Shown: positions 5,635-56,807, numbered from the stretch's first letter. The stretch: DNA of 64,000 nt from Candidatus Gottesmanbacteria bacterium (GCA_963714095.1 OY970230.1:198206-262205), one strand, 5' to 3'. Numbers and translations are program-made. Notes: generated by a model from the letters alone, not told the origin.

Positions 5635-5646
5635 ACGTTGAACCCC

Positions 5647-8271: not shown

Positions 8272-8782
8272 AAATAACTTCTATCTGCTCGGACAACACA
8301 TCAAAATGATCAAGAATTTCTTTTTTCGTACTTTCCGAAACGGCAATTATTTTTTCGCTCCAGAAAATTGCTTTTAACAGAGAAATATAATATCCCAGGC
8401 GGCGGATTTTGTAGAAAACATACGACAGCGTCGTTGCTTTTCCTGTGTCAAAATGCAAAATCGTCAGGTCGTGGATGGTCACGATACATTTTCCGAAATA
8501 GAAAAGCGGGACATTAAAATAGGGAACATGCAAAAGATCGAGATGCTCACTGTTAAAAATCGCCGGCATGAACAGCTGTTCAGTGACACTATGCCATGGA
8601 ATGTCCGCTAACCGTTTCGTCCATCTGGCATTAGGCAATGCAAACGAATCAAACGCAGATTTCCGTAAAAAAACCACGTAGGAATTTTTATCATCAATCT
8701 TCCCCAATTCTGCAATAAGATTGCGGACATATCGTCCGACGCCGGTCTCGTTTACAAGACGTGCATCTATGCCTATCTTCAT
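8261..8782 (-). CDS. glycosyltransferase family 4, N-terminal (acceptor) domain only
   Basis: MKIGIDARLVNETGVGRYVRNL opening. Ends ...IEVIYEG-stop at the end of the N-domain. Its last codons overlap the ATG of 7786..8271 (reverse-strand sequence GTTATTTATGAAGGATAA). Confidence 0.75.
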   Translation of the reverse strand: MKIGIDARLVNETGVGRYVRNLIAELGKIDDKNSYVVFLRKSAFDSFALPNARWTKRLADIPWHSVTEQLFMPAIFNSEHLDLLHVPYFNVPLFYFGKCIVTIHDLTILHFDTGKATTLSYVFYKIRRLGYYISLLKAIFWSEKIIAVSESTKKEILDHFDVLSEQIEVIYEG

Positions 8783-26983: not shown

Positions 26984-28672
26984 TTATTTCCGGCGTTTCA
27001 GTATAAGTATTACTGCTGAACTGACGAGCGTAATACTACTGATTCCGACACCTATATTTGCCAGTATTTGTTGTCTGGCGACGATCGGAGGAATTGTACT
27101 AATCATAGTAAACTGAGTATTTTTAAAAACCGCTACACCGGTAAAATCAGTGTCCTCAATAAGTGTCGTATTTTTAAGAGCATCTATTAGGAGGCTGCGT
27201 TCGTCGGGATTAAAACGGTAATCCGTAAGGAAAAACTGCTTCGTGAGATCAGTCGGCACGATCACATATCCGACTCCTGAATCTGCCAGACTCTTCATAA
27301 ATTCAGGCGTTTTAATCATGGCGATAACGGCAGATATTGAAGCGCCATTAAACAGTTCATTGGATGTCAGCAATGGGTGAACCTCTGACGTATATGCAAA
27401 CGGGTCGTTTTGAGGTATCCATAACGTGCGCGATGGTTTTGCATCCCCGACCAGTACATCTTTCAGGCGGACGTAATCGGCGGAAATTCGCGGTGGCAGG
27501 AAATTGCCCCGCATTTGGCCTAAAAAAACCGGCCGGATGGTAAAACACCAATACAACAGAAAGATGGTCCATATAAGTATTTCATTTATATGAATTTTTT
27601 CCGTGAGCCGCTGAAGTGTATACGGGATTAAAACGGAATATCCAAGAGCAGTAAAAACATATACTTTCGTGGGATCGCGGAACATGACAAATCCGGGTAT
27701 ATGGATAAACATCCACTGAAAAATTTCTCCGAACGGATCATTGACGCCTTTTGCAAGAAACACACCCAGAAGCGCGAGCACACCGAAAAAAAATATTTTT
27801 CTTGACCGATCCGCGGCTTTTTTTTCAACGAACAAAAACGCGCAAAATGCCAGGAGAGGCAAAATGAGAAATTCCGGCTGCAGGAAATAGACTTTTCCGA
27901 ATAAATTTTCCGGCCAATTCGGATGAAGAAGTGAAAGCGCATGGGAAAAATCCGCAGAGCTTAAAAATTTGAGCATGCCGGGACTCGTAAATTGATCTCC
28001 GAGTGATTGTATCCCACCTCCGCCAAACACCGTCGGCAAAATCCAAAAAGCGTGCGAACAAAGTCCGATGATGCCGGGGACAATAAACGTCGAAATAATT
28101 ATCGTGCCGATATATTTACTTCCGTACAGATACCAATGGAGAAAAAAATATAAACCTATAGCGATAACTGCAAGATATGCCAATCGTATATCGAGTACTA
28201 TTAACAACGCAAAATATAAACCGTTTCCAATAGACGTTCGTATATTCTGTTGTACGGGGGTATCAATACCCTCCGTAAACTTCAGAAACACCAAGGGCAG
28301 AAATGCAAATGCCCAGGCAACACCCAACTGACCTCCGCTGAAAAGAAGGAGAAAATATGTATTTGTGGTATAAATTACGGAACCCAACACGGCAAACAAG
28401 GGTCTATTAACACATCTTCTGACCAGCCGATATGATGAATACACTGCCAGAACAAAAGCGATGATCCAAAATAGTTTGTCTATGAAAAACCATGAAAATC
28501 CGAGCAGTGATAGTATTTTCAACACGAAACGGTACGGATATTCAAGCCACAAACGGGGCAACAGACTTTGCCCGAAACCTTTTGTCGTATCCCAAACGGG
28601 CGGCAACCATGAAAACTGCCGGATTTGTTCTTCAAACAAAAACGGCGCATCACCGGAAGCAAAAAATATCAT
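26984..28672 (-). CDS. polytopic membrane protein with C-terminal ectodomain and terminal TM anchor (AftD/YfhO-like layout)
   Basis: I moved the start to the ATG at 28672, which forms an ATGA overlap with the stop of 28669..31629. N-terminal loop SWLPPVWDTTKGFGQS. It ends in a hydrophobic anchor, GVGISSITLVSSAVILILKRRK. Confidence 0.5.
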   Translation of the reverse strand: MIFFASGDAPFLFEEQIRQFSWLPPVWDTTKGFGQSLLPRLWLEYPYRFVLKILSLLGFSWFFIDKLFWIIAFVLAVYSSYRLVRRCVNRPLFAVLGSVIYTTNTYFLLLFSGGQLGVAWAFAFLPLVFLKFTEGIDTPVQQNIRTSIGNGLYFALLIVLDIRLAYLAVIAIGLYFFLHWYLYGSKYIGTIIISTFIVPGIIGLCSHAFWILPTVFGGGGIQSLGDQFTSPGMLKFLSSADFSHALSLLHPNWPENLFGKVYFLQPEFLILPLLAFCAFLFVEKKAADRSRKIFFFGVLALLGVFLAKGVNDPFGEIFQWMFIHIPGFVMFRDPTKVYVFTALGYSVLIPYTLQRLTEKIHINEILIWTIFLLYWCFTIRPVFLGQMRGNFLPPRISADYVRLKDVLVGDAKPSRTLWIPQNDPFAYTSEVHPLLTSNELFNGASISAVIAMIKTPEFMKSLADSGVGYVIVPTDLTKQFFLTDYRFNPDERSLLIDALKNTTLIEDTDFTGVAVFKNTQFTMISTIPPIVARQQILANIGVGISSITLVSSAVILILKRRK

Positions 28673-33381: not shown

Positions 33382-34593
33382 ATGAACCGACAACCCTCTC
33401 CCCATTATGCATTTTTAGACGGCCTCAAAGGAATTGCTATTGTCATGATTGTCGCGTTTCACCTACAATTTATATATTCAGGATTTTCCGATTATTTAAG
33501 CAAGCTCCTAGCGTTTAGCGGTGTATGGGTAAATATGTTTTTCGTAATTTCCGCGTTTACCCTCACGGCGAGCGTCTATAATCAGCGTTTATTTAATTTT
33601 TTCCGGTATTTCTATAAACGTTTTCTTCGGATAACACCAGCATATTACGTAATGCTTGTTATTGCGTTTATCGTTATGCCAACTATGGTCAGAACATTTC
33701 TGTGGGGAAATAATATCCAGAATCTATTTCAACACATTCTCTTCATTAACACAGCCCCGTTTAATCATACCAATCAAGTTTCAATTCTGGGAGTGGAATG
33801 GTATATACCGGTACAATTTTGGCTCTATCTTGTCATACCATTTATCGTAATCACCCTTAGGGGAAATGGTATTATATTTTCGGCGCTTTTATTGGTATCG
33901 TTGTTTCTTCATTCAGATAAAAACGCACTCTTCCATTATCAGAATTTTTTTGATTTCGCCTCAAGTATACAGAACTTTCTCTGGGTCTATGTATTTGCTA
34001 TCGGTGCTCAAATGGTGCGTATGAATAAAAAAATTCATCTGTCGTTCTCATCCATTATCACAGGACTGGGAATTCTGGCAGGCTCTGTTTATTTTATTCT
34101 CACTATCCAAACTAAAAGTGAACGGTTCTATATAACTGCATTGATCGTCATGTTATATCAGATCCTCTTGAAAACACGCATTATCCGCCGCGTATCAACA
34201 ACCCATTCCTCGTTGGTACCGATACTCGAACATATTGACGTTCTTATATTATTTATTTTGTTTTATAAATATATCCTGAATTGGTACTTTGTAAAAAACC
34301 CTCATGAATTTATGGCATTCTGGTCAATTGCGCTGGTTATTGCGTCATATGCCCGCCCATGGTTCCTCCAGAAGTTATTGGAAAATCGTGCTGTTGTACT
34401 GCTGGGGAAATATAGTTATGAGATCTATCTCACGCATTTTTTCGTTATTACGGCGGTAGGTTATATTATTCCAAAACAAGGGCCATACATCCGCACGCTC
34501 TACATTCTTCCCATCATCGCCATTCTCTCGTATCTTTTACGCCAATTTGTTTCCAAACCTGCGCTGGATTTATATCCACTCAAAAATCAATAA
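33382..34593 (+). CDS. acyltransferase family 3 membrane protein (OafA/WecH-like O-acyltransferase)
   Basis: FLDGLKGIAIVMIVAFHL opening (conserved His), about 10 TM segments, C-terminal LGKYSYEIYLTHFFV motif. Confidence 0.85.
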   Translation: MNRQPSPHYAFLDGLKGIAIVMIVAFHLQFIYSGFSDYLSKLLAFSGVWVNMFFVISAFTLTASVYNQRLFNFFRYFYKRFLRITPAYYVMLVIAFIVMPTMVRTFLWGNNIQNLFQHILFINTAPFNHTNQVSILGVEWYIPVQFWLYLVIPFIVITLRGNGIIFSALLLVSLFLHSDKNALFHYQNFFDFASSIQNFLWVYVFAIGAQMVRMNKKIHLSFSSIITGLGILAGSVYFILTIQTKSERFYITALIVMLYQILLKTRIIRRVSTTHSSLVPILEHIDVLILFILFYKYILNWYFVKNPHEFMAFWSIALVIASYARPWFLQKLLENRAVVLLGKYSYEIYLTHFFVITAVGYIIPKQGPYIRTLYILPIIAILSYLLRQFVSKPALDLYPLKNQ

Positions 34594-36577: not shown

Positions 36578-37765
36578 ATGTTGCATTATACAAATACCGA
36601 AGCAAGAATGAAACATCTCAAAAGTGTACTGTATATTAATTTCGCACCGTACGATAACGCGGGAAAAATTCTGGATTATCTGCTCACGCGATATGAATAT
36701 GTTTATCATTTTTCCTTCAATTTCCATTATCTGCATAATGCGGAAAATGATAGTTCTTTGGTTATTTACAAACACCGTGTCATTATATCGAGACAATCAA
36801 TATTTCAACTCTTACCCCACCCCGGACTTATCTTTCTTCTTTTGCCGATACGATCGATTATATTTCTTCTGGAAATAATCCGTTATAGCAAAACAATAAA
36901 TAAACGGTACGGTGAAATAGATGATTATTTTACTGTTAATGCTTATACGGCATGGTGCGGCCTAATCCTTAAAAGATTACATTTTGTAAAGAGAACGATA
37001 TTCTGGGTATGGGATTATTATCCGCCGCACGATAAAAGCAAAGTTGTTACCTTTATGCGGTGGCTCTATTGGCACTTCGATAAACGAGCAACCCATTCTG
37101 ATAGGCTTATTTTTCTTAATCACCGGCTTGAAAATCTCAGAAAAAAAAATGGGATTTTACCCGCCTCGAAGCGTTACCCTATTATCGGAATCGGAACCAA
37201 TCTCATACAGATGAAACGAAAAATATCCGATTCACTCTTATTTATAGGCGTATTGAAACATAGTCAGGGGTTGGAATTACTTATACGGAATAGCGATAAA
37301 CTTCACCGCGCATATCCAAAACTGGATGTGCATATTATTGGCACCGGCCCGGAAGAAAATTATCTTAAAAGTATTGCAACACAGAGCTCTGTACCGTTTT
37401 ATTTCCATGGAATTCAGGATGTGTTTTCAACGACAGCAAAAAATATTATCAAAAAAACTTCAATCGGAATAGCACCATATAAACCAGAGGCGGGAAACGT
37501 TTCTTATTACGGTGACCCGTCCAAAATAAAAAACTATATCGGATACGGATTGCCGGTCATCACAACAAATGTCTTTGAATTTGCCAAAGAGATTCGCAAT
37601 TCTCATGCGGGCATAGTCATACAATATGATATTAATGCTTTTATCCGAGCATTAAACACAATCTATAAAACGTACGGCGAATATGCCGAAAACGCACATA
37701 ATTTGGCTAAAAAATACGACTACAGAACTAACTATGCAGATATGTTTGAGGATAATGAAGGGTAA
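36578..37765 (+). CDS. GT-B glycosyltransferase (GT4-like) with hydrophobic insert in the N-domain
   Basis: C-domain LLFIGVLKHSQGLELL ... YGDPSKIKNYIGYGLPVITT. Hydrophobic stretch LIFLLLPIRSIIFLLEII. Paralogue of 38820..39983. An alternative start lies at the ATG at 36608. Confidence 0.7.
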   Translation: MLHYTNTEARMKHLKSVLYINFAPYDNAGKILDYLLTRYEYVYHFSFNFHYLHNAENDSSLVIYKHRVIISRQSIFQLLPHPGLIFLLLPIRSIIFLLEIIRYSKTINKRYGEIDDYFTVNAYTAWCGLILKRLHFVKRTIFWVWDYYPPHDKSKVVTFMRWLYWHFDKRATHSDRLIFLNHRLENLRKKNGILPASKRYPIIGIGTNLIQMKRKISDSLLFIGVLKHSQGLELLIRNSDKLHRAYPKLDVHIIGTGPEENYLKSIATQSSVPFYFHGIQDVFSTTAKNIIKKTSIGIAPYKPEAGNVSYYGDPSKIKNYIGYGLPVITTNVFEFAKEIRNSHAGIVIQYDINAFIRALNTIYKTYGEYAENAHNLAKKYDYRTNYADMFEDNEG

Positions 37766-37773
37766 TAGAAAAC

Positions 37774-38823
37774 TCAATGTTTTCCTGCATTAAAACACAT
37801 ATCTGACAGAATCTGATCAATAGTATATGTATAATTCCACTTGGGGTAATGTCGTTTAAATTTATTTACATCAGATATATACCAAATATGATCTCCTATC
37901 CGTGGTCTATCAACATATCGAACACGAATTTTTTTGTCAAGTAATTTTTCAACTTTCCGGATTGCTTCAAGAATAGAAATACTGGCATGTCTGGATCCGC
38001 CGATATTGTAAACCTCACCGCTCCTTGGTTTCTTATATACCTCATAAAATGCTCTTATCAGATCCATTGAATGGATATTGTCGCGAACCTGTTTCCCCTT
38101 ATAACCCAGAATAGTATATTCCGTGTCTTCTTTGATGCATTTTACAAGATATGCTAAAAACCCGTGAAGTTTAACTGCGGAATGCATTGGTCCTGTAAGG
38201 CATCCGCCCCTAAACACGGTTGTTTTCAAGCCAAAATATCTTCCGTACTCCTGAACCATAAGATCAGCAGAGGTCTTTGAAACTCCAAAAATACTGTGTG
38301 TTGTATGGTCCAGACTCATCGTTTCATCAATTCCGTTATATAAGTGATGGCTGCGAGGAAGTTCCCATCGTGTTTGTTTTTCAATAAACGGCAGCAGGTT
38401 CGGGCTGTCACCATAAACTTTATTGGTTGAGGTAAATATAAATACCGCTTTCGGACAATATTTTCTGTATTGCTCTAATAAGAGAAGTGTCCCATATGCA
38501 TTAACCGAAAAATCCGTTAATGGTTCTTTTGCTGCCCAATCGTGTGACGGCTGGGCCGCCGTATGTATAATTAAATCAAAGGTATGATGAGAAAATAGAT
38601 TCCGTATTTTTATTTCATCACGTATATCAATTGTATGATGGTGATAATTACTAAATAATTTTATTAATCGTTTTTTGCTCCACGTTGTGTCACCATCTTT
38701 ACCAAAAAAATACGATCGCAGGTTATTATCTATACCATGAACGTCAAAATCTTTTGCACAAAAAAAAGCTACCGCTTCGGATCCAATAAGGCCATTCGAT
38801 CCTGTTATGAGAACTTTTTTCAT
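37774..38823 (-). CDS. NAD-dependent sugar epimerase/dehydratase (extended SDR; possibly CDP-paratose/tyvelose 2-epimerase-like)
   Basis: [18 protein letters not shown] Rossmann motif, [24 protein letters not shown] (YxxxK-type). The subfamily guess rests only on length, overall pattern and the CDP-sugar context. Confidence 0.75.
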
Positions 38824-45010: not shown

Positions 45011-46979
45011 CACGAATAGAAATATCTTTCCATTGACATGTGCCGAGATTCTGTTGAAATATCCGGATACCCTGAAGTTCCTCTCCTGCAAATTGTTCTA
45101 CTGCGCGTGAATCGGGATAGACATTTAGTTCACCGGCAAAATCCGCCGGTTGTTCAGAAAAACGATACCACGTAGTGCCGTCCGAGGAACCAAAAATATA
45201 CGCACTTGCGATAGGGTACGCACATTCGGGCTTAACAAAGTTAAACTCAATTCTTTTCACCCTGTTTTGCTTTTCCATACGCAATTCCAACAGATCAGAC
45301 GCCTTTTCCGTCACCTCAAACTTCTCATTTCTTTCATGGGTCATATCTACGCCGTGCGCAAGATGCAACGGGTCGTTTTTCCATATATACAGAAGCGGAA
45401 CACCATCAATCTGAACCGTATAAACCGGAGTGAGCATATTACGCAGAAAACGCATCCGGAAAAAATCATTGACGTTCAAACCCGGATATGTCAATTCCAT
45501 TACATATTCTCCTTGTTGCGCATAGAGGTCGGAATTCGTACCCACGAGGACTAAATCGTTCCGAAAATAGACCGTTGGAACCGCCGAAAAAATTGCGGTA
45601 CCGAGAGCTATCTTTGATCCGAGTTCGGCATGAGCATTAATCCAAAGAGCTCCCTGTTTATATGCATTTCCATACGTATTATTTGCGCCATCCAAACCAT
45701 ATTTCATGGCGCCGGGTAATCCTCCGATGAGTGCGTTATAATACACGTTTTCGTTCGGATGTAATTGAACCATTGTATAGATAATCGGTATATATCCCGA
45801 AATCGCAATCAGAATAATGATCTGCCGTATCGCCCGCCTTTTTTGCAATCGCATAACATGTTCAACTGCTACTCCACAAAGGAGTGATAAGGGGATCATA
45901 TACTCCATAATTTGACGCAGGCTGCCGCCATATAAATACTCGAGGGGAATTGTTGCCCGACCTACTGTAACAAAAATCCAAAGTAACCAAAGAAAAACCG
46001 CGCTGCTTTTACCGAAAGCATATTTCCAGCCAATAACACTCCCCGTCAAAAAAAACAGAAGCGTCGGAATTGGCATCGACGTGCATAACACTACTATGGT
46101 ATTCCAGTCTGAACAATGCACGAACCAGGGAATCGTACCAAAATAATATCCGCAGCTATTTGCGGCATTGGATACTCCCAAATAATACTGAATTACCTGG
46201 AATGTCTTCTGAATCGGCGATGACCACAATGCCGGATACGATATGAAAAACATCCCATATGCAATAATCGGAATAACGATACAGGAGGTAATAACTATCC
46301 GCCGGAGCGGTTTTTTCTCCCACCACCTCAGGGATATAAACCACGGAATGAGAATAAATACAGAAAATACTATATTGAACTTGGTCCCGAGGGATAATCC
46401 GAAAAAAATTGCCGAAACGAAAACCGGCCAATATTTTTTGTATTCAACGGCGAACCATAGAAAAAATAGCGCACCTGTATAATATGAAGCAACCAACGGA
46501 TCCTTAATATTAAAATGCTGTTCGGCAAACAACAGCGGCAACGTGATTAAGGAACACACCGAAAAAAAAGACGCTACAGGACCAAAAACCAGATATGACC
46601 AGCATCCGACTAGGACGACCATGAAGAGAGTCATAAGCAAAACATACACTTCATAGCTTTCAATATCTCCGACTAATCCAAATTTACCCCACAGAATTCT
46701 GTTTGTTGCCGCCATCAAAATGTCAGAAAGCGGCGGGTGACCAATAGTCATTTTCGTCGTCCATGCCCAATCTAACGGACTATTCTGGTAATAACTTAAC
46801 CTTTTGGATTTGAGATCAGGCTTGTCAGTTTTACCAGTTTCAAAAAATCGTAAATAGATATTTCCCCGGACCAAATGCTGATACGTGTCCCAATTTACAC
46901 CGTAATCGTAGATGGTTTTAAACGATAATACGGAAAAAACCGCGATAAGGAAGAGTGTCGGAAATATTCGCCATTTCAT
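44994..46979 (-). CDS. GT-C-like polytopic glycosyltransferase with ~170-aa C-terminal soluble domain
   Basis: I chose the start at the ATG at 46979, which forms an ATGA overlap with the stop of 46976..47680. First loop YDYGVNWDTYQHLVRGN ... GHPPLSD (ArnT/PMT-like PPL element). More than 12 TM segments. Confidence 0.62.
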   Translation of the reverse strand: MKWRIFPTLFLIAVFSVLSFKTIYDYGVNWDTYQHLVRGNIYLRFFETGKTDKPDLKSKRLSYYQNSPLDWAWTTKMTIGHPPLSDILMAATNRILWGKFGLVGDIESYEVYVLLMTLFMVVLVGCWSYLVFGPVASFFSVCSLITLPLLFAEQHFNIKDPLVASYYTGALFFLWFAVEYKKYWPVFVSAIFFGLSLGTKFNIVFSVFILIPWFISLRWWEKKPLRRIVITSCIVIPIIAYGMFFISYPALWSSPIQKTFQVIQYYLGVSNAANSCGYYFGTIPWFVHCSDWNTIVVLCTSMPIPTLLFFLTGSVIGWKYAFGKSSAVFLWLLWIFVTVGRATIPLEYLYGGSLRQIMEYMIPLSLLCGVAVEHVMRLQKRRAIRQIIILIAISGYIPIIYTMVQLHPNENVYYNALIGGLPGAMKYGLDGANNTYGNAYKQGALWINAHAELGSKIALGTAIFSAVPTVYFRNDLVLVGTNSDLYAQQGEYVMELTYPGLNVNDFFRMRFLRNMLTPVYTVQIDGVPLLYIWKNDPLHLAHGVDMTHERNEKFEVTEKASDLLELRMEKQNRVKRIEFNFVKPECAYPIASAYIFGSSDGTTWYRFSEQPADFAGELNVYPDSRAVEQFAGEELQGIRIFQQNLGTCQWKDISIRVIGFP

Positions 46980-47680
46980 ATTTTTTGCATACAGCAATAA
47001 ATATTGGTAAACCCCCGTTCCTTTTGATATTCCTCGTCCAATTTTCGCTCAAAAAATCGGGCGAAAAATGGGGATCTGCGGAAAATCCATTTTGATATAT
47101 AAAGATTTAAAATCCAGGCTGTTTCCCACCATGCACCGGCACATTGGATTTTAACAATCTTCATGCCTGACCCCCGGACATACGCGATAATCGAACCTAC
47201 CGTATAATGCCTGTGGCCAGTTAACCAAAACGCCGGATCCAATAACGTGCTAATAATAAACCGGTGCGGCGTAGAAATATAACACGCACCACCCCGTTTC
47301 AGTACGCGGGAAATCTCCCGAAACATTATATATTCCGTTCCTTTTGGAATGTGCTCGAGAACTTCCCACGATACGACTGTATCAAACGAACGTTTTGGAA
47401 AAGGTATTACTGTGGCGCTGCCGACGATAAAATGAATTTTTTTGTCATAAATAGACCGCTTCGCCGTACGAAAATCTTCCTCAGTCAACTCAGTTCCCAC
47501 GATAGATCGGACGTTATTTTTTTTCGCAAATACCTCAAACCACCCATACCCGCAGCCGATATCGAGAACTTTTTTATATGTTATATCACCGATCCGTACA
47601 AAAGAAGCCGTAAAACGCAGACGTTCATGAAGCGGAGCATATGGCGATACCTTGGTGATATTTTTCATACAGGGCGACAA
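46976..47680 (-). CDS. class I SAM-dependent methyltransferase
   Basis: Motif I VLDIGCGYGWFE, followed by FDTVVSWEVLEHI and LKRGGACYIST. Confidence 0.85.
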   Translation of the reverse strand: MSPCMKNITKVSPYAPLHERLRFTASFVRIGDITYKKVLDIGCGYGWFEVFAKKNNVRSIVGTELTEEDFRTAKRSIYDKKIHFIVGSATVIPFPKRSFDTVVSWEVLEHIPKGTEYIMFREISRVLKRGGACYISTPHRFIISTLLDPAFWLTGHRHYTVGSIIAYVRGSGMKIVKIQCAGAWWETAWILNLYISKWIFRRSPFFARFFERKLDEEYQKERGFTNIYCCMQKI

Positions 47681-47720: not shown

Positions 47721-49031
47721 TTATCGCAGGTTTTGTAATCGGAAAAATGATTCCAATGTTTTTTCTATATATCCGATCATTTGAACTGTAATACCGGGCC
47801 AGACTCCTATCCAAAATCCGTAATTCATAACCGTGTCTGAATTTTTCATAGATCCGGAAATACGTATATCTTTTCTACCGATATAGGCGGGGTGACGAAG
47901 AAGGTTTCCGGCAAACAGATTTCGGGTCCCGATGTTATGTTCCTCCAAATACTTGACCAATTCCAGCCGTGTAAATGGCGCAGTATCTTTGACAACCAGC
48001 ATAAATCCGAACCAGCAGGGGTCAGAGACCGGATCCCACTCGGGCAAAATAAAATATTTCTCATATTTTTTGAAAAAATCATATAGAAGGGTGAAATTTC
48101 TCTTACGCTTTTTTATAAATACGGGAAGTTTTTTTAACTGGGCAACGCCGATAGCCGCCTGAAAATCAGTCAGCTTGAGATTGTAACCGATTTGAGAATA
48201 AATATATTTATGATCGTATCCTTTCGGCAGTTCCCCAAGCTGCCAGCCAAAACGCCGTTTGCATGTATTGTCCTTCCCCGTATCGCACCAGCAATCCCTC
48301 CCCCAATCACGGAACTGACGCAGAGCCTTATGAATCAGAGGATTATTCGTCACAATCGCCCCGCCTTCGCCCATGGTAATCTGATGTGCCGGATAAAAAG
48401 AAAAGGTCCCGATATGGCCAAACGTGCTTAACTTTTTGCCCTGATATGTCGATCCGAGCCCGTCGCAGCAATCCTCAATAAACCATAGATTATACTTCAC
48501 TACGAGCCGCATAATGCCCTCTATGGGCAAAGGATTCCCGAGGGTATGTGCAAGCATGATAACCCTTGTTTTCTTCGTTATAGCCTGTTCTATAGCCTCA
48601 CACGTAGGATTTCTTGTCCCCAAATCAACATCTACGAATACCGGCACGCATTTATTCTGAATAATAGGATTAACGGTCGTCGGAAAGGCACACGCTGCGG
48701 CGATGATTTCATCTCCCGGCTTGAGTGCTTTTTTGCCGAATACGGAAGACGTGAGGGCGGTCAATGCCAGCAAGTTGGCGGAAGATCCGGAATTTACCAG
48801 TGTTACGTATCGTATGCCGAGATACGAAGCAAAATTCTTTTCAAACTTTTTGGCAAACTCCCCCTCCGTCCACCACCCGTCCAGCACTGCTTCCGCACCA
48901 CTGAGCAATTCCTGTTGGTCAAACACTTTCCCGGAAACCGGTACTGAAGACTTTCCGGGTTTAAATGGACGGGTGGAATATTTCTGACGTGCGTATGAAC
49001 GAATTAGCCCTGCAATATTTGCTGGCATCAT
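47721..49031 (-). CDS. rfbH: CDP-4-keto-6-deoxy-D-glucose 3-dehydrase (E1; RfbH/DdhC/AscC type, PMP and [2Fe-2S] dependent)
   Basis: DegT-family fold, but the Schiff-base Lys is replaced by His: FYPAHQITMGEGG, with H216 at nt 48384-48386 (checked; codon CAT). Cys189, Cys247, Cys249 and Cys257 give exactly C-X57-C-X1-C-X7-C. RfbH-type N-terminus PVSGKVFDQQELLSGAEAVLDGWWTEG. Confidence 0.9.
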   Translation of the reverse strand: MMPANIAGLIRSYARQKYSTRPFKPGKSSVPVSGKVFDQQELLSGAEAVLDGWWTEGEFAKKFEKNFASYLGIRYVTLVNSGSSANLLALTALTSSVFGKKALKPGDEIIAAACAFPTTVNPIIQNKCVPVFVDVDLGTRNPTCEAIEQAITKKTRVIMLAHTLGNPLPIEGIMRLVVKYNLWFIEDCCDGLGSTYQGKKLSTFGHIGTFSFYPAHQITMGEGGAIVTNNPLIHKALRQFRDWGRDCWCDTGKDNTCKRRFGWQLGELPKGYDHKYIYSQIGYNLKLTDFQAAIGVAQLKKLPVFIKKRKRNFTLLYDFFKKYEKYFILPEWDPVSDPCWFGFMLVVKDTAPFTRLELVKYLEEHNIGTRNLFAGNLLRHPAYIGRKDIRISGSMKNSDTVMNYGFWIGVWPGITVQMIGYIEKTLESFFRLQNLR

Positions 49032-49954
49032 ATATTTTTCTTCAAAATCGACTGAATTGTTTCTATAATTTGGTTGACAGTCAAACCGTTGGCCTCTCTC
49101 ATATATTCCTGCAAACCCATACCTTTCGTAAACCTATCGGGTACACCGATTCGCCTGAAAGGAATTGCATTACCGTGTTCCGCGAGTATTTCCGATACTG
49201 CGCTTCCTAATCCTCCGATTACACTGTGTTCCTCCAAAGTAAATATCGCTTTCGTGTATTTTGCGGAATCCAAAATCAATTGCTGATCTATGGGTTTTAT
49301 TGTATGCATACTGATCAACCGTCCCTGCATTCCCTGAATGGCAAGTTTCTCAACCACATCTATACCGCGTGCGACAAGCGTTGATGTTGCAATAAGACAA
49401 TAGTCCTTTCCTTTCCTCAGGATAATACCCTTACCAATTTTAAAATGCGGCGGCTTATCATACAAACGAGGTTCTCCGGCTTTCCCGATCCGCAGATAGA
49501 CGGGACCTTTGTGCATCAAGGCGGCCCGCGTCGCTAGCTCCGCCTCTATCGGATCTGCCGGGCAGACTATTGTCATGTTCGGGAGGGTTCGCATTATACC
49601 GATATCTTCCAGACTATGATGTGTATGTCCGTAGGGACCGTATGCGAATCCCGCCCCAACACCGACAATTTTAACATTCAAATTTTGATAGCAAATATCA
49701 TTCCTCACCTGTTCAAAATTCCGCATGGTAACAAACGGAATAATAGAATAGATAATAGGAATTTTTCCCTCAAGCGCCATACCCGCCGCGACCCCTGTCA
49801 TGTTCTGCTCGGCAATCCCCATATTAATATATTGCCGGGGCACCTCATGAATATACTTTTCAAAAACGGAATATCCCAAATCTCCTGTAAGCAGGATGAT
49901 CCGTCTATCTTGTTTTGCCAACTGAAGTATCGTTTTCGTAAATGCTATTCTCAT
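49028..49954 (-). CDS. transketolase, C-terminal (pyrimidine-binding/C-domain) subunit
   Basis: MGIAEQNMTGVAAGMALEGKIP and HHSLEDIGIMRTLPNMTIVCPADP are typical of split transketolase subunit B. ATGA overlap with the rfbH start. Confidence 0.9.
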   Translation of the reverse strand: MRIAFTKTILQLAKQDRRIILLTGDLGYSVFEKYIHEVPRQYINMGIAEQNMTGVAAGMALEGKIPIIYSIIPFVTMRNFEQVRNDICYQNLNVKIVGVGAGFAYGPYGHTHHSLEDIGIMRTLPNMTIVCPADPIEAELATRAALMHKGPVYLRIGKAGEPRLYDKPPHFKIGKGIILRKGKDYCLIATSTLVARGIDVVEKLAIQGMQGRLISMHTIKPIDQQLILDSAKYTKAIFTLEEHSVIGGLGSAVSEILAEHGNAIPFRRIGVPDRFTKGMGLQEYMREANGLTVNQIIETIQSILKKNI

Positions 49955-50796
49955 ACTGCTTCCAAATCCTTTAATGCTTTATCAAACTCCTTTTCCGTCG
50001 GAGCTTTATACTGGGACGAAACTGTGCCTATATACCTGGCTACACCCCCAAGACCTTTTATCGTATGAGCGATAATTACCGATGGCTTTCCGTTTCGGAA
50101 TGGAAGAGTTCTAAACGTTTGGATAACTTTCTTAATATTATGCCCGTCTACCTCCGCGACTTCCCAATCAAAACTTTGCCATTTTTCTTTCAACGGTTCC
50201 AGATCTAACACATCTTTGGTGAATCCGAAGCCCTGCAGCTTATTATAATCGACGATAGCAATAAGGTTATCCAGCTTATGATATCCGGCAAACAATATAG
50301 CTTCCCATGTAGAACCTTCATCACATTCACCGTCGGACAGTACAGCGAATACTCGATAAGCCTTTTTATCCTGTTTCCCTACCCACGCCATTCCTGCAGC
50401 CATGGGTAACCCGTGGCCCAGAGAACCGGACGAAATTTCAATACCCGCGATACCTCGTACCGAATGTCCCGGCAATAATCCGCCGTCATGCTCATAGCCT
50501 TTCAACAGTTTTTTATCAAAGAAGCCACGTTCTGCAAGTACGGCATACAGAGCTTTAGCGTCATGCGCTTTGCTGAATACCAGCCTGTCCCGACGTGGAT
50601 TCACCGGATCGCCGGGATATACCTTCATTATCCGAAAATACAACGCTACCAAAATTTCCACACACGATAGCGCGCCGCCCGTATGTGCACTCTGAGCCAG
50701 ATAGCTCATCGTCAGAATATCCCGACGGATATCTCTTGCAATAGTTTCTAACGTTTTTCTTTTACTACGGGTAATTGTTCTCATCTTCAGTATCAA
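49951..50796 (-). CDS. transketolase, N-terminal (ThDP-binding) subunit
   Basis: SAHTGGALSCVEIL, SKAHDAKALYAVLAERG, and the ThDP/Mg motif VLSDGECDEGSTWEAILFAGYHKLDNLIAIVDYN. Confidence 0.9.
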   Translation of the reverse strand: MILKMRTITRSKRKTLETIARDIRRDILTMSYLAQSAHTGGALSCVEILVALYFRIMKVYPGDPVNPRRDRLVFSKAHDAKALYAVLAERGFFDKKLLKGYEHDGGLLPGHSVRGIAGIEISSGSLGHGLPMAAGMAWVGKQDKKAYRVFAVLSDGECDEGSTWEAILFAGYHKLDNLIAIVDYNKLQGFGFTKDVLDLEPLKEKWQSFDWEVAEVDGHNIKKVIQTFRTLPFRNGKPSVIIAHTIKGLGGVARYIGTVSSQYKAPTEKEFDKALKDLEAV

Positions 50797-50921: not shown

Positions 50922-52034
50922 TTACCGATATCGAATAAGTTTTGTGAGCTTCTCACAAATGAATGCAACGTCCGATTCTGTTATATCGGCGGCAGACGGC
51001 AGGTTGAATCCATATTTCTCTACTTTTGCGGCTTCAGGATTAGGGAATCGGCGCTCGTACATGGGAAATCCGCTCATCCGGGGAAACGCGACCCTTCCAT
51101 GAATATTCCATCGTTCCAATTTACTTACCAAATCCTTATTGGATATTTTTTTTGAAGTGAGTAAAGCGGAGGGATATGCGTAATTACTGCGGCATCCGGG
51201 CCTTTCTTTAATGAGTTTTAATTCATGTACATCTTTCAGCCGTGAGTAATACCAGCCGAATATTCTCCGTTTTTTTGCAACGAGTTCTTCTATGCGCTCG
51301 ACCTGAGCAAGCGCCAGGGCTGCTGTCACATTTGCCATTTGATATTCATATCCCAGTGAATCACACCAAAAATTGAATTTCCTATTCGTTCTGCCCATGT
51401 TACTGAAAAGAATAGCTTTATCAAGGTATGCCTTATTATTTGTAATAAACATCCCGCCTTCACCAGAAACGGCGATTTTTGCCCCATGAAATGAATAGGC
51501 GCCGACGTCACCGAACGTGCCCACTTTCTTTCCTTTATATAAGGAGCCGAGCGAAGGAGCCGCATCTTCAATAACTTTAAGTTTATACTTTCCGGCAATT
51601 CGCATTATTTCATCCATTTCCGCCGGATGCCCGAAGGTATGAACGAGCATAATACCTTTCGTCTTTTTTGTAATTGCGCGTTCTACGGCTTTGGGATCAA
51701 TACACCATGTATCAGGATCAATATCAACAAATACAGGAGTTGCACCCGTATATGCGATCACGTGAGCGGTTGCGGCCCAACTGGTATCCACACATATTAC
51801 CTCGTCACCTTTTTGAAAACCGCAGACCAAACATGCAAGATGGAGTGAATGTGTTGCACAAAAACCGGCTAAAGAATACTTCGCACCGGTATAGTCACAC
51901 ATACGTTTTTCTAGTTTCTTTATATGCTTGTCAAATGTTGAGTACCACCCTGTCTTAACAGCATCGACAACATAATCAACTTCTTTTTGAGTCATCGATG
52001 GACCTGCAAAACTAATCCTTTTATATTTTTTCAT
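50922..52034 (-). CDS. DegT/DnrJ/EryC1/StrS-family NDP-sugar aminotransferase (PLP-dependent)
   Basis: Retains the catalytic Lys: AYSFHGAKIAVSGEGGMFITN. Length 370 aa. Confidence 0.9.
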   Translation of the reverse strand: MKKYKRISFAGPSMTQKEVDYVVDAVKTGWYSTFDKHIKKLEKRMCDYTGAKYSLAGFCATHSLHLACLVCGFQKGDEVICVDTSWAATAHVIAYTGATPVFVDIDPDTWCIDPKAVERAITKKTKGIMLVHTFGHPAEMDEIMRIAGKYKLKVIEDAAPSLGSLYKGKKVGTFGDVGAYSFHGAKIAVSGEGGMFITNNKAYLDKAILFSNMGRTNRKFNFWCDSLGYEYQMANVTAALALAQVERIEELVAKKRRIFGWYYSRLKDVHELKLIKERPGCRSNYAYPSALLTSKKISNKDLVSKLERWNIHGRVAFPRMSGFPMYERRFPNPEAAKVEKYGFNLPSAADITESDVAFICEKLTKLIRYR

Positions 52035-52719
52035 ACGGTAATTTCATAACTACACTATATCGTTTTATTGTTCCTTTATAACCTTTGGGTGCATTTTGCC
52101 ATTCAATTCTATCAGATTTAACAATCCTGATCATGGGCGTCCGTTTCACTTCAGTAAAATCAAGCTTTCGGTAAAGGCGAATGGCTCTTATATTATCAGA
52201 CGTTGTAGACAGCATATACGTTTTAATTCCAAATTCAACCCTGCCCCAACATATCATATGACGTATCGCATCTTCTATAATTCCGGGGTATAAATTCACA
52301 CCACGCACAATATTATCTATTTCGCAGATACGTTTTTGAAAATTAAAACGATACAAGCCGATATGACCGATGTACCGGTTTTTTACTTTTATCATAAATA
52401 AAATCCTGTCGGGTTCATTCACAACTTTATCGCGCAACCATTTTTCGGTTCCTTCCAAGGTAACCGGGAATATTGCAGGAAACCATTGCTCATGCTTTTT
52501 TCTCCATAACGCGAGTAGTTTAATAATTTTTTTATCAGTTCTCTGGTTGTCCGTAACGAGAACTAAATAATAACGAATTTTTCTAAAAATTATTTTAATT
52601 TGTAATTTTTTTCCGTGTTTAAGCAATGAAATTTTGTCTTTCACCAAACTGCTGATATCTCGCTCCGTTAATTTCATAATCAACCTAATGCTCTGTCTTT
52701 TATTCTTTCGATATATCAA
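52021..52719 (-). CDS. GNAT-family N-acetyltransferase (PseH/WecD-like sugar N-acyltransferase candidate)
   Basis: IGHIGLYRFNFQKRICEIDNIVRG ... AIRLYRKLDFTEV has a GNAT-like core. Overlaps the aminotransferase start by 14 nt. Confidence 0.6.
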   Translation of the reverse strand: MIYRKNKRQSIRLIMKLTERDISSLVKDKISLLKHGKKLQIKIIFRKIRYYLVLVTDNQRTDKKIIKLLALWRKKHEQWFPAIFPVTLEGTEKWLRDKVVNEPDRILFMIKVKNRYIGHIGLYRFNFQKRICEIDNIVRGVNLYPGIIEDAIRHMICWGRVEFGIKTYMLSTTSDNIRAIRLYRKLDFTEVKRTPMIRIVKSDRIEWQNAPKGYKGTIKRYSVVMKLPYEKI

Positions 52720-52723
52720 CTAA

Positions 52724-53686
52724 TTATTTCAAGATAGAATTATACCAGCGGCGGATTAAAGGAAGTGTGTTTTTAATCGAATATGTAGGTCTCCATCCCA
52801 GATTGATAATCTTCCCTGCATTCAAATGCTGGTACGGAATTTCGTTCTTCGCCGAGTTTTCTATAACATACGGTATTTTTCTTTTTAGTATCCTTTCTGT
52901 TTGCCTGATGAGAGCTATCACTGAACACGAGTCGCTGGAGGATAAATTAAATGCCTCCCCATTAGTTTTATCTCTATGTTCAAGAAGGAACAAATAGCCG
53001 GATACTACATCTTCAACGTAAATATAGTCCCGGACATATGAACCGTCACTTCGAATAACCAATTTTTCTTTCGTGACAACTGCTTTCATTATTCCCGGAA
53101 TAATCCGTGAAAAATTCAGATCACCTTCTCCGTAAATATTTCCTGCCCGTGTAACGACGATAGGCAAATGGTATGTTTTTGCGTATGCGTGTGCGAGAAG
53201 ATCCGTTGCCGATTTAGAAACCTCATATGGATGGTCGCCTCTCAAAGGATCCGTCTCGATATAGGGTTTCCTGCTTTTTCCGTAGCTTTTATCAGACGAT
53301 GCAACAATGACTCCTTTCACATGAGTAAAAAGTCGTGCCGCATCGAGAATATAGGTGGTACCCATGATATTAGTTTCAATTGTTTCCACGGGATTTTCGT
53401 AGGCAGTAGGCACTATTGCCTGAGCGGCTAAGTGGAAAATATAGTCAATTTCATATTTTGACACGATATCAAAAACCCGATCTTTATCTTTAAGGTCACA
53501 TGAAACAAGAACGGTATTTTTTGATAACCGTTCGGTCATGAAATATGAACGGGGGTCTAATGATCGAAACGGCACAAATACCGTTGCATGCCTCCCTAGT
53601 AAGGCTTTCACAAGATGACTTCCAACAAACCCCGTTCCGCCTGTGACCAGAATGTTCTTTCCTGTTAATCTTTCCATATTTTCCAT
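52724..53686 (-). CDS. NDP-hexose 4,6-dehydratase, CDP-glucose 4,6-dehydratase (RfbG)-like
   Basis: ILVTGGTGFVGSHL, PYEVSKSATDLL (YxxxK), and TRAGNIYGEGDLNFSRIIPGIMKA resembling the RfbG RAGNVIGGGD...R.iP element. It sits next to rfbF. It is shorter (320 aa) than the classical RfbG. Confidence 0.65.
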   Translation of the reverse strand: MENMERLTGKNILVTGGTGFVGSHLVKALLGRHATVFVPFRSLDPRSYFMTERLSKNTVLVSCDLKDKDRVFDIVSKYEIDYIFHLAAQAIVPTAYENPVETIETNIMGTTYILDAARLFTHVKGVIVASSDKSYGKSRKPYIETDPLRGDHPYEVSKSATDLLAHAYAKTYHLPIVVTRAGNIYGEGDLNFSRIIPGIMKAVVTKEKLVIRSDGSYVRDYIYVEDVVSGYLFLLEHRDKTNGEAFNLSSSDSCSVIALIRQTERILKRKIPYVIENSAKNEIPYQHLNAGKIINLGWRPTYSIKNTLPLIRRWYNSILK

Positions 53687-54441
53687 TCAGGATTCCGTTT
53701 CCATAATGTATTAAGACGTTCCAAATCCGCATATGTATCCATCGATTGCCAAAAACCTTTATGGACAAAAAGAGATAGCTCCCGGTCTTTAACAAGCCTT
53801 TTTAGTGCCTCATGTTCATATTCAGCCGGCCGCAGATAATTAAAAAACTTTTTATCAAATACCATAAATCCGCCGTTTACCCAATCCTGTAAAACAGGTT
53901 TTTCGACAAACTCCGTTACCCTGTGTTTAACATTTTGCCGGACCATTCCGTATTTACTTTTCGGATACACGCCAGTTATGGTACCGATTGTTTTTTGTTT
54001 TCTGTGAAACTGAACTAATTGCCGGATATTGATATTAGACACACCGTCCCCGTACGTAACCATAAAATCTTTATCAGTTTTCGGGATATAATCTTTTACA
54101 CGTATTATTCTTTCACCCGGAAGTGTCCCCTCTCCCGTATCTACAAAGGTAATTTTGAAATTATCGGCGGCAGATGGGTTTTTATGAAAAATCGCTGAGC
54201 CGGATTTTGTGGATAACGTAAAATTTTGTGAAAAATATTTTTGATTTAAAAAATACTCCTTAATCATATCCCCCTTATACCCGAGGGCAATGATAAAATC
54301 ATTAAACCCGTAGTACGCATACATTTTCATGATATGCCACAGGATTGGTTTATTGCCGACCAACACCATGGGTTTTGGTTTAAACTCTGTTTCCTCCTTT
54401 AATCTGTATCCTATACCGCCACATAAAATAATCGTCTTCAT
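53665..54441 (-). CDS. rfbF: glucose-1-phosphate cytidylyltransferase
   Basis: MKTIILCGGIGYRLKEETEFKPKPMVLVGNKPILWHIMKMYAYYGFNDFIIALGYKG is the canonical RfbF N-terminus. Length 258 aa. Confidence 0.92.
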   Translation of the reverse strand: MKTIILCGGIGYRLKEETEFKPKPMVLVGNKPILWHIMKMYAYYGFNDFIIALGYKGDMIKEYFLNQKYFSQNFTLSTKSGSAIFHKNPSAADNFKITFVDTGEGTLPGERIIRVKDYIPKTDKDFMVTYGDGVSNINIRQLVQFHRKQKTIGTITGVYPKSKYGMVRQNVKHRVTEFVEKPVLQDWVNGGFMVFDKKFFNYLRPAEYEHEALKRLVKDRELSLFVHKGFWQSMDTYADLERLNTLWKRNPEWKIWKD

Positions 54442-55616: not shown

Positions 55617-56807
55617 CTATTTATGTCCGGCAGTAAATACCTTTATGATTGTTTGGATTTCTCCAGTCGTCAGTTCCGGATTATTGCCAAAATATAATCC
55701 TTGTTCATGTATGAGCTTCACGTTGACGCATTCGCGGAAATTACCCTTCACGTATTTGGTAAAAAACGGTTGTTCTGTCATATCGCCGCCGACAACCGGC
55801 CTGATTTCAATCCTGTTACCGCAGGCCTTTACTAACGAATCCCGGATTGCGGTTGATTTGCATATAACGGGCACGGCAAAATTTGAAATTGTATCCATGT
55901 GATCATATCGTATAGGATAGTAATCCGGCGACTGATAAATTCTTCCGGCAATTTTTTTAAAATTATTCTGCCGTTTCTTAATTATTTCAGGGAGAAATTT
56001 AATTTGAATTTGTCCTAGATACCCGGTAATTTCCGTCGGACGGAAATTATACCCTAAATCATAGAACGTATACCGCCCATAAAACGACGGGTTTGCAAGA
56101 AATTTTCTCCGGGCCGTCTGTTCCGGAACTGACAGATTTCTATCCCAACCGTGAGCCCGCACCATGATGAGCATACTCGCGAGATCACTGTTATCTGTAC
56201 AAACCGCACCTCCTTCGACTGTTGACATGTGGTGTCCAACGTAAAACGAAAATGTACCTGCCTCTCCGAAATTACCGAGTTTTTTGGCATGATAAACAGA
56301 TCCCAGAGATTCACAGTTGTCTTCTACGAACAGCATGCCGCGTTTATTGCAGAGATCCATAACTTTATCAATATCGTCACATAATCCGAGAAGGTTTGTA
56401 AGGAGAAGTGCTTTTAGTTTATACCTAGCTAATGTGTTTAACAGGGTTCTACTGGATACATTCAGGGTGTCTAGTTCCACGTCAACTGGTACCGGCTTCA
56501 GACCCAACTGAATAAGCGGCATAACGTTGGTAGACCATGTGACGGCGGAAAATCCGACCATGTCTCCTTTGTGAATTTTACCTAGATTAAGAAGGGCCTG
56601 AATAAGCGCTAAATTTGCGGAACTGCCGCTGTTGAGCAATACACAGTATTTTTTCCCCTGCCAGAAAGCAAATTGTTTCTCAAATGCTTCGCACTCCTTA
56701 CCGAAACTTAACTGTTTGGCGACCAATAAAAATTGGATCAGCTTCCGTTTTGTTTCGTTTTCTTTATAAAATGTCGATTTTATAAGTGTAATCATGTTAA
56801 TGAACAA
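55617..56807 (-). CDS. ColD-like NDP-4-keto-6-deoxyhexose 3-dehydratase (DegT fold, His replaces catalytic Lys)
   Basis: GTFSFYVGHHMSTVEGGAVCTDN (H192 at the Lys position, nt 56232-56234), EDNCESLGSVY, VRAHGWDRNL, IEIRPVVGG and GLYFGNNP. These closely parallel the ColD sequence as I remember it. There is no Fe-S Cys motif. Confidence 0.78.
   Translation of the reverse strand: MFINMITLIKSTFYKENETKRKLIQFLLVAKQLSFGKECEAFEKQFAFWQGKKYCVLLNSGSSANLALIQALLNLGKIHKGDMVGFSAVTWSTNVMPLIQLGLKPVPVDVELDTLNVSSRTLLNTLARYKLKALLLTNLLGLCDDIDKVMDLCNKRGMLFVEDNCESLGSVYHAKKLGNFGEAGTFSFYVGHHMSTVEGGAVCTDNSDLASMLIMVRAHGWDRNLSVPEQTARRKFLANPSFYGRYTFYDLGYNFRPTEITGYLGQIQIKFLPEIIKKRQNNFKKIAGRIYQSPDYYPIRYDHMDTISNFAVPVICKSTAIRDSLVKACGNRIEIRPVVGGDMTEQPFFTKYVKGNFRECVNVKLIHEQGLYFGNNPELTTGEIQTIIKVFTAGHK

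Follow-up and report, generated by a model that had tools for sequence, protein, structure and literature searches.

The yersiniose A pathway of Yersinia pseudotuberculosis includes YerE, a thiamine diphosphate (ThDP)-dependent enzyme whose substrate is the product of the 3-dehydrase E1, and the reductase YerF follows YerE (PMC12247030). Two-subunit ThDP enzymes, namely the aldgamycin enzyme and KbDH-alpha/beta of kibdelomycin, add a two-carbon (C2) branch to nucleoside diphosphate (NDP)-keto sugars; in this alpha-keto acid dehydrogenase-2 type, the branch ketone can then be reduced, methylated or transaminated (PMC12247030). For split-gene transketolases, a review from 2025 presents the transfer of a hydroxyacetyl unit to a keto sugar as a proposal in miharamycin and amipurimycin biosynthesis, and 13 further split-gene candidates were found bioinformatically, all in Streptomycetes; of all these transketolases, none has been characterised in vitro (PMC12247030). 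Here we analyse a split transketolase, TktN/TktC, encoded beside an E1 gene on 64,000 nucleotides of DNA of a Candidatus Gottesmanbacteria bacterium (GCA_963714095.1 OY970230.1:198206-262205). This whole stretch is referred to as the window, and all its coordinates are counted from its first letter.

A preliminary description of the window, made from the sequence alone, had taken the pair for a specialised enzyme that is genetically tied to the cytidine diphosphate (CDP)-3,6-dideoxyhexose pathway, and residues, tree and synteny bear this out. We propose, with a probability of about 0.5, that TktN/TktC is a ThDP carboligase with a heteromeric transketolase fold which acts on CDP-4-keto-3,6-dideoxyhexose and thus would serve nucleotide-sugar tailoring rather than the pentose-phosphate pathway.

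Active-site residues of TktN and TktC

TktN, the ThDP-binding (PP) subunit of this variant split transketolase, is encoded at positions 49951..50796 on the minus strand (Pfam Transketolase_N, 111.7 bits). TktC, the pyrimidine-binding and C-terminal subunit of 308 aa, is encoded at 49028..49954 on the same strand (Transket_pyr 122 bits, Transketolase_C 84 bits). These three are the only Pfam domains of the two subunits. The TktN reading frame comprises 281 aa from a TTG codon; the public gene call starts at the ATG at 50784 and gives 277 aa ('MRTIT...'), and this ATG is probably the true start.

Residues were mapped onto human and yeast transketolase, with yeast numbering as reference. The ThDP motif that had been noticed in the N subunit is indeed present, 'VLSDGECDEGSTWEA...IVDYNKL' (quoted also as 'SDGECDEGSTWEA...DYN'), with Asp155 and Asn185 as ThDP/Mg ligands. 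It has the form SDG-X27-N, in which Ser154-DG stands in place of the canonical GDG. Along with both ligands, TktN keeps His38, His78 and His111 (yeast H30, H69 and H103), and TktC keeps Arg2, Ser29, Glu49, His112 and Arg155 (yeast R359, S386, E418, H481 and R528), the cofactor-activating Glu49 being invariant. In ThDP motif, Mg ligands and activating Glu, the pair thus conforms to a canonical transketolase.

The substrate-binding positions do not conform. In TktC, yeast His469 corresponds to Gly100 and Glu476-Asp477 to Pro107-Tyr108; in TktN, His263-Gly has become Gln262-Tyr263 and GSLGQG has become GSLGHG (His128). Among the residues for phosphate and acceptor hydroxyl, the equivalents of Arg359, Ser386 and Arg528 are kept and those of His469 and Asp477 are changed, and the His30/His263 pair for the donor C1-hydroxyl is reduced to the His30 equivalent, with Gln262 at the position of His263. 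The equivalents of His469, Asp477 and His263 are gone in every member of the clade described below, where Tyr105 and Tyr108 of the active-site loop are invariant. Gly100 and Tyr108 are likewise invariant in 120/120 closest database homologues (62-70% identity), and outside the Tyr-108 subclade the Asp477 position is held by Leu, Ala or Gln.

In yeast transketolase, His469 helps to bind the substrate phosphate, and mutagenesis of the yeast enzyme has assigned to Asp477 the holding of the acceptor hydroxyl (2-OH) beside the carbonyl. The loss of both residues, with the residues of catalysis and both arginines intact, suggests a ThDP enzyme that is active but takes another, likewise anionic substrate. 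Retention of Arg2 and Arg155 would fit an anionic (diphosphate) substrate, and the hydrophobic Tyr at the Asp477 position would fit a 3-deoxy acceptor, which carries no hydroxyl beside its carbonyl. Thus, residue mapping shows an acceptor pocket that appears remodelled around an intact catalytic machinery, and these changes would fit an acceptor other than a 2-hydroxy-aldose phosphate.

The model scores place the pair likewise outside the curated families. The NCBIfam transketolase model NF004559 gives 234.9 bits for TktN and 198.6 bits for TktC, and even their sum stays below the equivalog cut-off of 488. Pfam E1_dh gives 19.2 bits, under the cut-off of 22, and the models of the pyruvate dehydrogenase (PDH) E1 beta subunit give 60-70 bits versus cut-offs >320, so that the pair does not belong to the PDH-E1 alpha/beta family. 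Neither do the subunits have the three-domain fold of the acetolactate synthase (ALS) type (TPP_enzyme_N/M/C). A specific model for sugar-cluster split transketolases was not found in NCBIfam.

Phylogenetic position

A scan of species-representative genomes yielded about 66 canonical (H..ED..H) split transketolases and a smaller Gly-100 set. The collection scans, run with one generic pattern, returned mostly canonical transketolases of Firmicutes, which were used as control set. Neighbour joining of 87 TktC sequences separated the Gly-100 proteins, as a single clade, from the approximately 66 canonical ones; nested in this clade, the Tyr-108 proteins are monophyletic. The phylogeny against canonical transketolases had been set beforehand as a test of the specialised role. 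The pair falls outside the canonical split-transketolase group and does not join the housekeeping enzymes of pentose-phosphate or glycolysis context. On these alignments, the pair is shown to be a member of a specialised clade and not a housekeeping transketolase.

The Gly-100 family is large. Among the best 150 representatives at 50% identity, Gly occupies position 100 in 116 and the canonical H-E-D is found in only four, while position 108 is highly variable. Named taxa among the TktC homologues are Gottesmanbacteria, Microgenomates and Patescibacteria, which places the source genome in the candidate phyla radiation (CPR).

Conserved neighbourhood in the Tyr-108 clade

For the gene neighbourhood, we compared the window with nine further contexts of the Tyr-108 clade (L002, L003, L005, L006 and L085-L089). 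All ten lie in sugar-nucleotide clusters. Relatives with the pair away from sugar genes, which the preliminary description had named as an observation that would speak for chance adjacency, were not seen among them. A true orthologue of the E1 protein RfbH (65-68% identity) is encoded within 4.5 kb in eight of the ten contexts versus 0/69 canonical loci (Fisher p = 1.7e-9), mostly immediately downstream of TktC. Any CDP-sugar gene is present in 10/10 clade contexts and in 0/69 canonical loci, and not one of the 69 canonical split transketolases adjoins a cytidylyltransferase, a 4,6-dehydratase or RfbH. This synteny is conserved between genomes of only 60-70% identity. The tightest and most constant neighbour in the clade is the 3-dehydratase, which is often translationally overlapped with TktC. 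In the window, the split transketolase lies inside an NDP-keto-sugar cluster, with cytidylyltransferase, 4,6-dehydratase and E1 in the operon. The cluster of L002 consists only of cytidylyltransferase, 4,6-dehydratase, a short-chain dehydrogenase/reductase (SDR), the transketolase pair and E1, i.e., the exact logic of yersiniose biosynthesis with no other ThDP enzyme. The comparison shows that the linkage of the pair to CDP-sugar and 3-dehydratase genes is conserved.

In L005 and L087, the place of the true RfbH directly after TktC is taken by a 404-aa E1-like DegT protein encoded on the opposite strand. The protein of L087 (8918-10132, minus strand) has His for the lysine that binds pyridoxal phosphate (PLP), is devoid of the Fe-S cysteines and scores 343 bits with the RfbH model, below its cut-off; that of L005 (around 11000, minus strand) was assigned to the group solely by its tblastn match to RfbH (246 bits, 38% identity). 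L170, which carries a Tyr-108 variant, reveals the order SDR, His-type DegT, SDR, TktN, TktC and GT10 glycosyltransferase. Its DegT protein (4991-6229, plus strand) likewise has His at the PLP-lysine position and none of the four [2Fe-2S] cysteines. The E1-like subgroup of L005, L087 and L170, which is 37-40% identical to RfbH, looks like an uncharacterised class of putative cluster-less 3-dehydratases.

Tyr-108 was also considered as a strict marker of a neighbouring 3-dehydratase and rejected in this role; the association, found in 12 of 14 contexts, is a trend only, with L014 as counter-example.

Further genes accompany the pair in single contexts. YerE/ALS-like ThDP enzymes are encoded in L003 (6118-7905) and L085 (538-2379); with 446 and 392 bits, respectively, they stay under the cut-off of the ALS model (538). 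The gene of L003 is followed by an aminotransferase resembling aspartate aminotransferase (AspAT-like), and a HAD phosphatase gene lies between TktC and RfbH; the gene of L085 is followed by two SDRs. In L086, a bona fide PanB (3-methyl-2-oxobutanoate hydroxymethyltransferase; 4468-5373, 348 bits versus a cut-off of 272) directly precedes aminotransferase, GNAT and transketolase module in a CPR sugar cluster and may make a hydroxy-2-oxo-acid donor. PanB of L086 and the AspAT-like enzyme and HAD phosphatase of L003 hint at dedicated 2-oxo-acid or ketol donors.

A DegT neighbour of any kind occurs in only three canonical loci (H-E-D), L052, L057 and L144 (two named ones are metagenome-assembled genomes of Stomatobaculum), in which an aminotransferase-like DegT gene lies immediately downstream of the split transketolase.

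The wider Gly-100 family

Outside the CPR, the wider family is found in glycan loci of several phyla. L014 of the Acidobacteria is a classical polysaccharide locus, in which GT4, cytidylyltransferase, RfbH, FkbM methyltransferase, 4,6-dehydratase, SDR, TktN, TktC, GT2, Wzy_C, GT2 and Bac_transf follow one another. In Paenibacillus sp. MMS18-CY102 (L013), the series comprises cytidylyltransferase, 4,6-dehydratase, NDP-hexose C-methyltransferase, an SDR-TktN fusion, TktC and a TylF-like O-methyltransferase; the fusion of an extended SDR to TktN is a single continuous open reading frame (ORF) of 650 aa (8052-10004). This host is a cultivable organism in which the variant transketolase could be studied. 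L171 has the order SDR, SDR, TktN, TktC. The wider family has an extended SDR directly upstream of TktN as its most frequent partner, the Tyr-108 subclade the 3-dehydratase. Natural fusions (P0138, P0224) join variant TktC to a zinc alcohol dehydrogenase and to a methyltransferase. In P0261, a canonical TktC is fused to a SIS-looking (GmhA-like) domain, judged by its sequence.

The E1 dehydrase and its electron supply

The gene downstream of TktC (47721..49031, minus strand) encodes E1, CDP-4-keto-6-deoxy-D-glucose 3-dehydrase (RfbH/AscC/DdhC). The protein reaches 650.5 bits with the NCBIfam RfbH equivalog model, whose cut-off is 423, and matches the Yersinia pseudotuberculosis E1 (PDB 3BCX) at 521 bits. 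His216 of the pyridoxamine phosphate (PMP) type is kept at the position of the PLP lysine (FYPAH216Q), and so are all four [2Fe-2S] cysteines, C189, C247, C249 and C257 (Yersinia C193/C251/C253/C261), in the motif C-X57-C-X1-C-X7-C. By every sequence criterion, the predicted product is a genuine E1.

A plant-ferredoxin/FNR motif of the reductase E3/AscD was not detected among the window ORFs and 12 related loci in a test at motif level only, nor was a ferredoxin/FNR-type Pfam domain found among the called genes. With no E3 gene seen in these loci, E1 would presumably draw its electrons from a general, non-dedicated reductase. E1 homologues such as SpnQ function with general cellular reductases, and the missing E3 therefore needs no special explanation.

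Gene order of the cassette

The pair and E1 belong to a tight series of minus-strand genes that runs from 54441 to 46976 and encodes cytidylyltransferase, 4,6-dehydratase, GNAT, aminotransferase, TktN, TktC, E1 and methyltransferase. A two-subunit transketolase between the aminotransferase/GNAT genes and E1, as first described, is thus found where it had been reported. The pathway would begin with a glucose-1-phosphate cytidylyltransferase-like protein (RfbF-like; 53665..54441, minus strand; Pfam NTP_transferase), which matches NCBIfam TIGR02623 over its full length at 272.8 bits and narrowly misses the cut-off of 300.25; orthologues with 51-71% identity occur in six of the nine related PY-clade contexts. 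The next gene (52724..53686, minus strand) encodes an extended SDR resembling CDP-glucose 4,6-dehydratase (RfbG-like; Pfam Epimerase, GDP_Man_Dehyd) with 189.5 bits on TIGR02622, under the cut-off of 278, and has orthologues in related contexts at 50-60% identity. It is followed by a GNAT N-acyltransferase (52021..52719, minus strand; Pfam Acetyltransf_3, Acetyltransf_1; weak PseH match), which again adjoins the transketolase pair in L006, L086, L087 and L088. The DegT-family sugar aminotransferase (50922..52034, minus strand; Pfam DegT_DnrJ_EryC1, 330 bits) is of the Lys type and perosamine-synthase-like, with 231 bits against the perosamine synthetases 3BN1 and 3DR7 and the Lys kept in 'SFHGAK'. 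At the other end of the series, a class I methyltransferase dependent on S-adenosylmethionine (46976..47680, minus strand; Pfam Methyltransf_11, Methyltransf_25) probably provides a tailoring step; a methyltransferase gene lies 3' of the E1 gene in L003 as well.

Direct reading of the sequence reveals two ATGA stop/start overlaps on the minus strand, TktN/TktC at 49951..49954 and, as had been noted before, TktC/E1 at 49028..49031. A 4-nt overlap of the TktC/E1 type is present in L002, too. An alternative start of E1 at the next ATG, 49028, would give a 1-nt overlap with TktC. Among 50 same-strand junctions in the window, eight show a 4-nt overlap and 22 any overlap. The ATGA overlap was therefore rejected as a sign of special coupling; it is a matter of co-transcription and nothing beyond. 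What goes beyond chance is the conservation of the transketolase/E1 neighbourhood in relatives, not the overlap. A promoter and terminator scan from 44.5 to 57 kb gave counts equal to the shuffled expectation, and Rfam and tRNA scans of the window gave no match, e.g., no thiamine pyrophosphate (TPP) riboswitch before TktN.

The surrounding glycan island

The window as a whole is a nearly single-strand glycan island rich in glycosyltransferases. Only two long ORFs lie on the plus strand (33382-34593 and 36578-37765), all others being on the minus strand; nearly all 2-kb bins have a negative GC skew, and the cumulative curve declines almost without reversal. The Microgenomates genome Ch65 is reported to show a similar strand disparity (PMC7143001). 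From 34 to 44 kb, the GC content is lowered to 0.36-0.38.

A second sugar 3-dehydratase of the PMP type (His, no Lys) is encoded at 55617..56807 on the minus strand. It is ColD-like, with 210 bits to ColD/WbdK (2GMS); its 'GHH' aligns with 'SHH' of ColD at the Lys position, and it has no Fe-S cysteine motif. The gene lies 5 kb upstream of the transketolase and adjoins a GT4 gene. With this ColD-like gene and E1, the island encodes two different 3-deoxygenation enzymes; the ColD-like gene lies in the same glycan island and may or may not be linked to the transketolase. For an extended SDR of 349 aa (37774-38823, minus strand), an orthologue with 71% identity immediately precedes the cytidylyltransferase in L006; the SDR may be part of the same CDP-sugar pathway, though it is 10 kb away here. 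Among the glycosyltransferases of the window, there are two further long minus-strand ORFs, one of 997 aa without Pfam match (12240-15233) and one of 986 aa that looks like a large multi-pass membrane protein (28669-31629).

Proposed function and alternative explanations

In the proposed pathway, cytidylyltransferase and 4,6-dehydratase would provide CDP-4-keto-6-deoxy-D-glucose, from which E1 would remove the 3-hydroxyl to give CDP-4-keto-3,6-dideoxy-D-glucose. The transketolase-like enzyme would form a ThDP-bound C2 carbanion from a small donor, most likely hydroxypyruvate or another ketol, or pyruvate. Transfer of this C2 unit onto the C4 ketone would yield a 4-C-branched tertiary-alcohol sugar in a reaction chemically like that of YerE, and the branch carbonyl or the sugar itself could then be tailored by aminotransferase, GNAT and methyltransferase, and in relatives by the adjacent or fused SDR. 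What we infer here is which donor is used, that the CDP-keto sugar is the acceptor and is attacked at C4, and in which order tailoring proceeds. In engineered transketolases, histidines of the His103/His481 type had to be replaced before pyruvate was accepted. Both equivalents are kept in the pair, which would slightly favour a hydroxylated donor, i.e., hydroxypyruvate or a ketol.

Several observations weigh against a branching of the E1 product by TktN/TktC. The function of the clade members is read from their sequences. According to the review of 2025, ketones are not a demonstrated acceptor for any transketolase (PMC12247030). The aminotransferase beside the pair is of the C4-aminotransferase, perosamine-synthase-like type and would be a competitor for the C4 ketone if the branch carbonyl is not its target. 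Cytidylyltransferase and dehydratase both score under their equivalog cut-offs, so that CDP-glucose is likely rather than certain as the starting sugar. Residue and partner also part company in single loci: L014 has an E1 but Ala-Leu at the Pro107-Tyr108 positions, and L171 and L169 have the Tyr and no dehydratase nearby. In L003 and L085, the YerE/ALS-like enzyme is encoded in the same cluster as the pair, and C4 branching there could be its task, with something else left to the transketolase. The suggestion in the preliminary description that a transketolase takes over the role of YerE is hence sustained in its link to the E1 pathway, and the two clusters speak against a simple one-for-one replacement; the glycolaldehyde-type unit which that description had suggested is one possibility. 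As a separate observation on L169 (GMY), its TktN is an 81-aa remnant (7763-8008) beside an intact TktC, which may be module decay.

A role of the pair as ThDP carboligase or lyase elsewhere in the same glycan pathway, other than C4 branching of the E1 product, is in our estimate rather unlikely. Such an enzyme could act on CDP-4-keto-6-deoxyglucose before E1 or on a keto intermediate made by an SDR, could build a side chain for aminotransferase and GNAT, or could prepare a ketol- or 2-oxo-acid-derived donor for a YerE-like enzyme. A role of this kind would accord with the YerE/ALS-like enzymes of L003 and L085, with PanB, which forms a hydroxy-2-oxo acid, beside the module of L086, and with the AspAT-like aminotransferase and HAD phosphatase that flank the transketolase of L003. 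It would also suit the five contexts in which aminotransferase and GNAT occur with the transketolase, as well as the many loci of the wider family that have cytidylyltransferase and SDRs and no E1 (L007, L010, L013, L171). It is less easily reconciled with the Tyr-108 clade itself, whose most constant neighbour is a 3-dehydratase that often overlaps TktC, and with L002, where the yersiniose logic is complete without any further ThDP enzyme. The idea that the enzyme stands in for E3 asks for more: a ketol or 2-oxo acid would be oxidised by it, and the two electrons of its ThDP-enamine would go to the [2Fe-2S] cluster of E1. Oxidation of the dihydroxyethyl-ThDP intermediate by ferricyanide is known for transketolase, the Fe-S ligands of E1 are all kept while an E3 motif of the ferredoxin/FNR type was found neither in the window nor in 12 related contexts, TktC and E1 are translationally overlapped, and Tyr105 and Tyr108 are invariant in the active-site loop. 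Yet the clade also pairs with E1-like dehydratases without Fe-S cysteines (L087 and L170, and L005 by tblastn), the wider family occurs without any dehydratase, general reductases suffice for SpnQ, and we know of no precedent. We consider such a substitution very doubtful, and an additional feeding of electrons to E1 beside carboligation is unlikely, too.

A true transketolase might supply glycan precursors, sedoheptulose-7-phosphate for heptoses or xylulose-5-phosphate for pentitols, and owe its place in the cluster to co-regulation. Genes of the heptose pathway (SIS/GmhA-like, GHMP kinase, HAD, NTP transferase) within 10 kb in L002 and L087 would suit this, the TktC-SIS fusion P0261 shows such a coupling for canonical transketolases, and the equivalents of Arg359, Ser386 and Arg528 are kept. 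The explanation appears improbable to us since the equivalents of His469, Asp477 and His263 are lost throughout the clade, no heptose genes surround the pair in the window, L003, L006, L085, L086 and L088, and canonical split transketolases beside cytidylyltransferase, 4,6-dehydratase or RfbH number 0/69. Chance adjacency of an ordinary housekeeping enzyme of the pentose-phosphate pathway was rejected on residues, tree and synteny, and we give it hardly any credence. In many bacteria, Microgenomates among them, the housekeeping transketolase is normally encoded by split genes (PMC7143001). However, the housekeeping transketolase genes of Ch65 form an operon with aldolase, i.e., a pentose-phosphate context, and do not sit with sugar-tailoring genes (PMC7143001), and the pair of the window belongs to a separate clade, has lost substrate-binding residues, stays below the curated cut-offs and is held in synteny across genomes which share only 60-70% identity.

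Branching of the E1 product by the pair hence remains our preferred explanation. Somewhat more tentatively, the Tyr-108 clade may hold the first enzymes of the transketolase fold whose acceptor is a nucleotide-activated ketone, CDP-4-keto-3,6-dideoxyhexose being hydroxyacetylated or acetylated by them. If so, 4-C-branched dideoxy sugars would be reached by a third ThDP route that is independent of the others, and many CPR/Patescibacteria as well as some Acidobacteria, Planctomycetes and Firmicutes would carry undescribed branched surface sugars, possibly amino-branched ones. Uncultivated bacteria of ultra-small size may, on this view, carry branched sugars on their surfaces that are not yet known. 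For the synthesis of chiral tertiary alcohols, biocatalysts are wanted among ThDP enzymes that transfer carbon units to ketones, and ketone addition by the transketolase class has so far been a proposal from a handful of Streptomyces clusters. The clade is large and defined by sequence, its signature being Gly for His469, loss of Asp477 and, in the subclade, Tyr-108. As the E1 product can be made in vitro and is a proven substrate of YerE, the function is directly testable. The findings also flag a likely annotation error, in that 'transketolase' in CPR genomes is counted as pentose-phosphate capacity.

Comparison with known systems

The best structural relative of the pair is the canonical split transketolase of Carboxydothermus hydrogenoformans (6YAK/6YAJ), with 200 bits for the N and 244 bits for the C subunit. 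Both enzymes are divided at the same point, with the Arg359 equivalent at the beginning of the C chain, and agree in their ThDP and catalytic residues. The Carboxydothermus enzyme, unlike the pair here, keeps His469, Glu476-Asp477, His263-Gly, GSLGQG and GDG, and canonical split-transketolase loci are without sugar-nucleotide neighbours. With the E1/E3 systems (AscC/AscD, RfbH/RfbI), the cassette has in common an E1 gene that passes every sequence criterion, and it differs from them in that an E3 motif was found neither in the window nor in related contexts.

The yersiniose A system and the cassette share ThDP-dependent C-C bond formation in a pathway of cytidylyltransferase, 4,6-dehydratase and E1. 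The reductase that follows YerE has its likeness in the SDRs which accompany the transketolase in relatives. YerE itself is a single chain of the ALS-like decarboxylase superfamily (TPP_enzyme_N/M/C) and uses pyruvate, whereas the pair consists of two chains with a transketolase fold. The alpha-keto acid dehydrogenase-2 enzymes, members of the PDH-E1 alpha/beta family, likewise have pyruvate as donor, whereas TktN/TktC matches transketolases best. With the miharamycin and amipurimycin transketolases of Streptomyces, which were compared by description only, the pair shares the two-subunit transketolase in a sugar-tailoring cluster; the clusters there are those of nucleoside antibiotics, with no CDP-sugar or E1 context. 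That the function of such pairs is not biochemically established, as the preliminary description had stated, agrees with the 2025 review (PMC12247030). In the literature, nothing was found that links split-gene transketolases to E1, CDP-dideoxyhexose loci or CPR, apart from the proposal of that review. Sugar branching by split transketolases is thus already known as a proposal; what is new is this clade, its residue signature and its linkage to E1.

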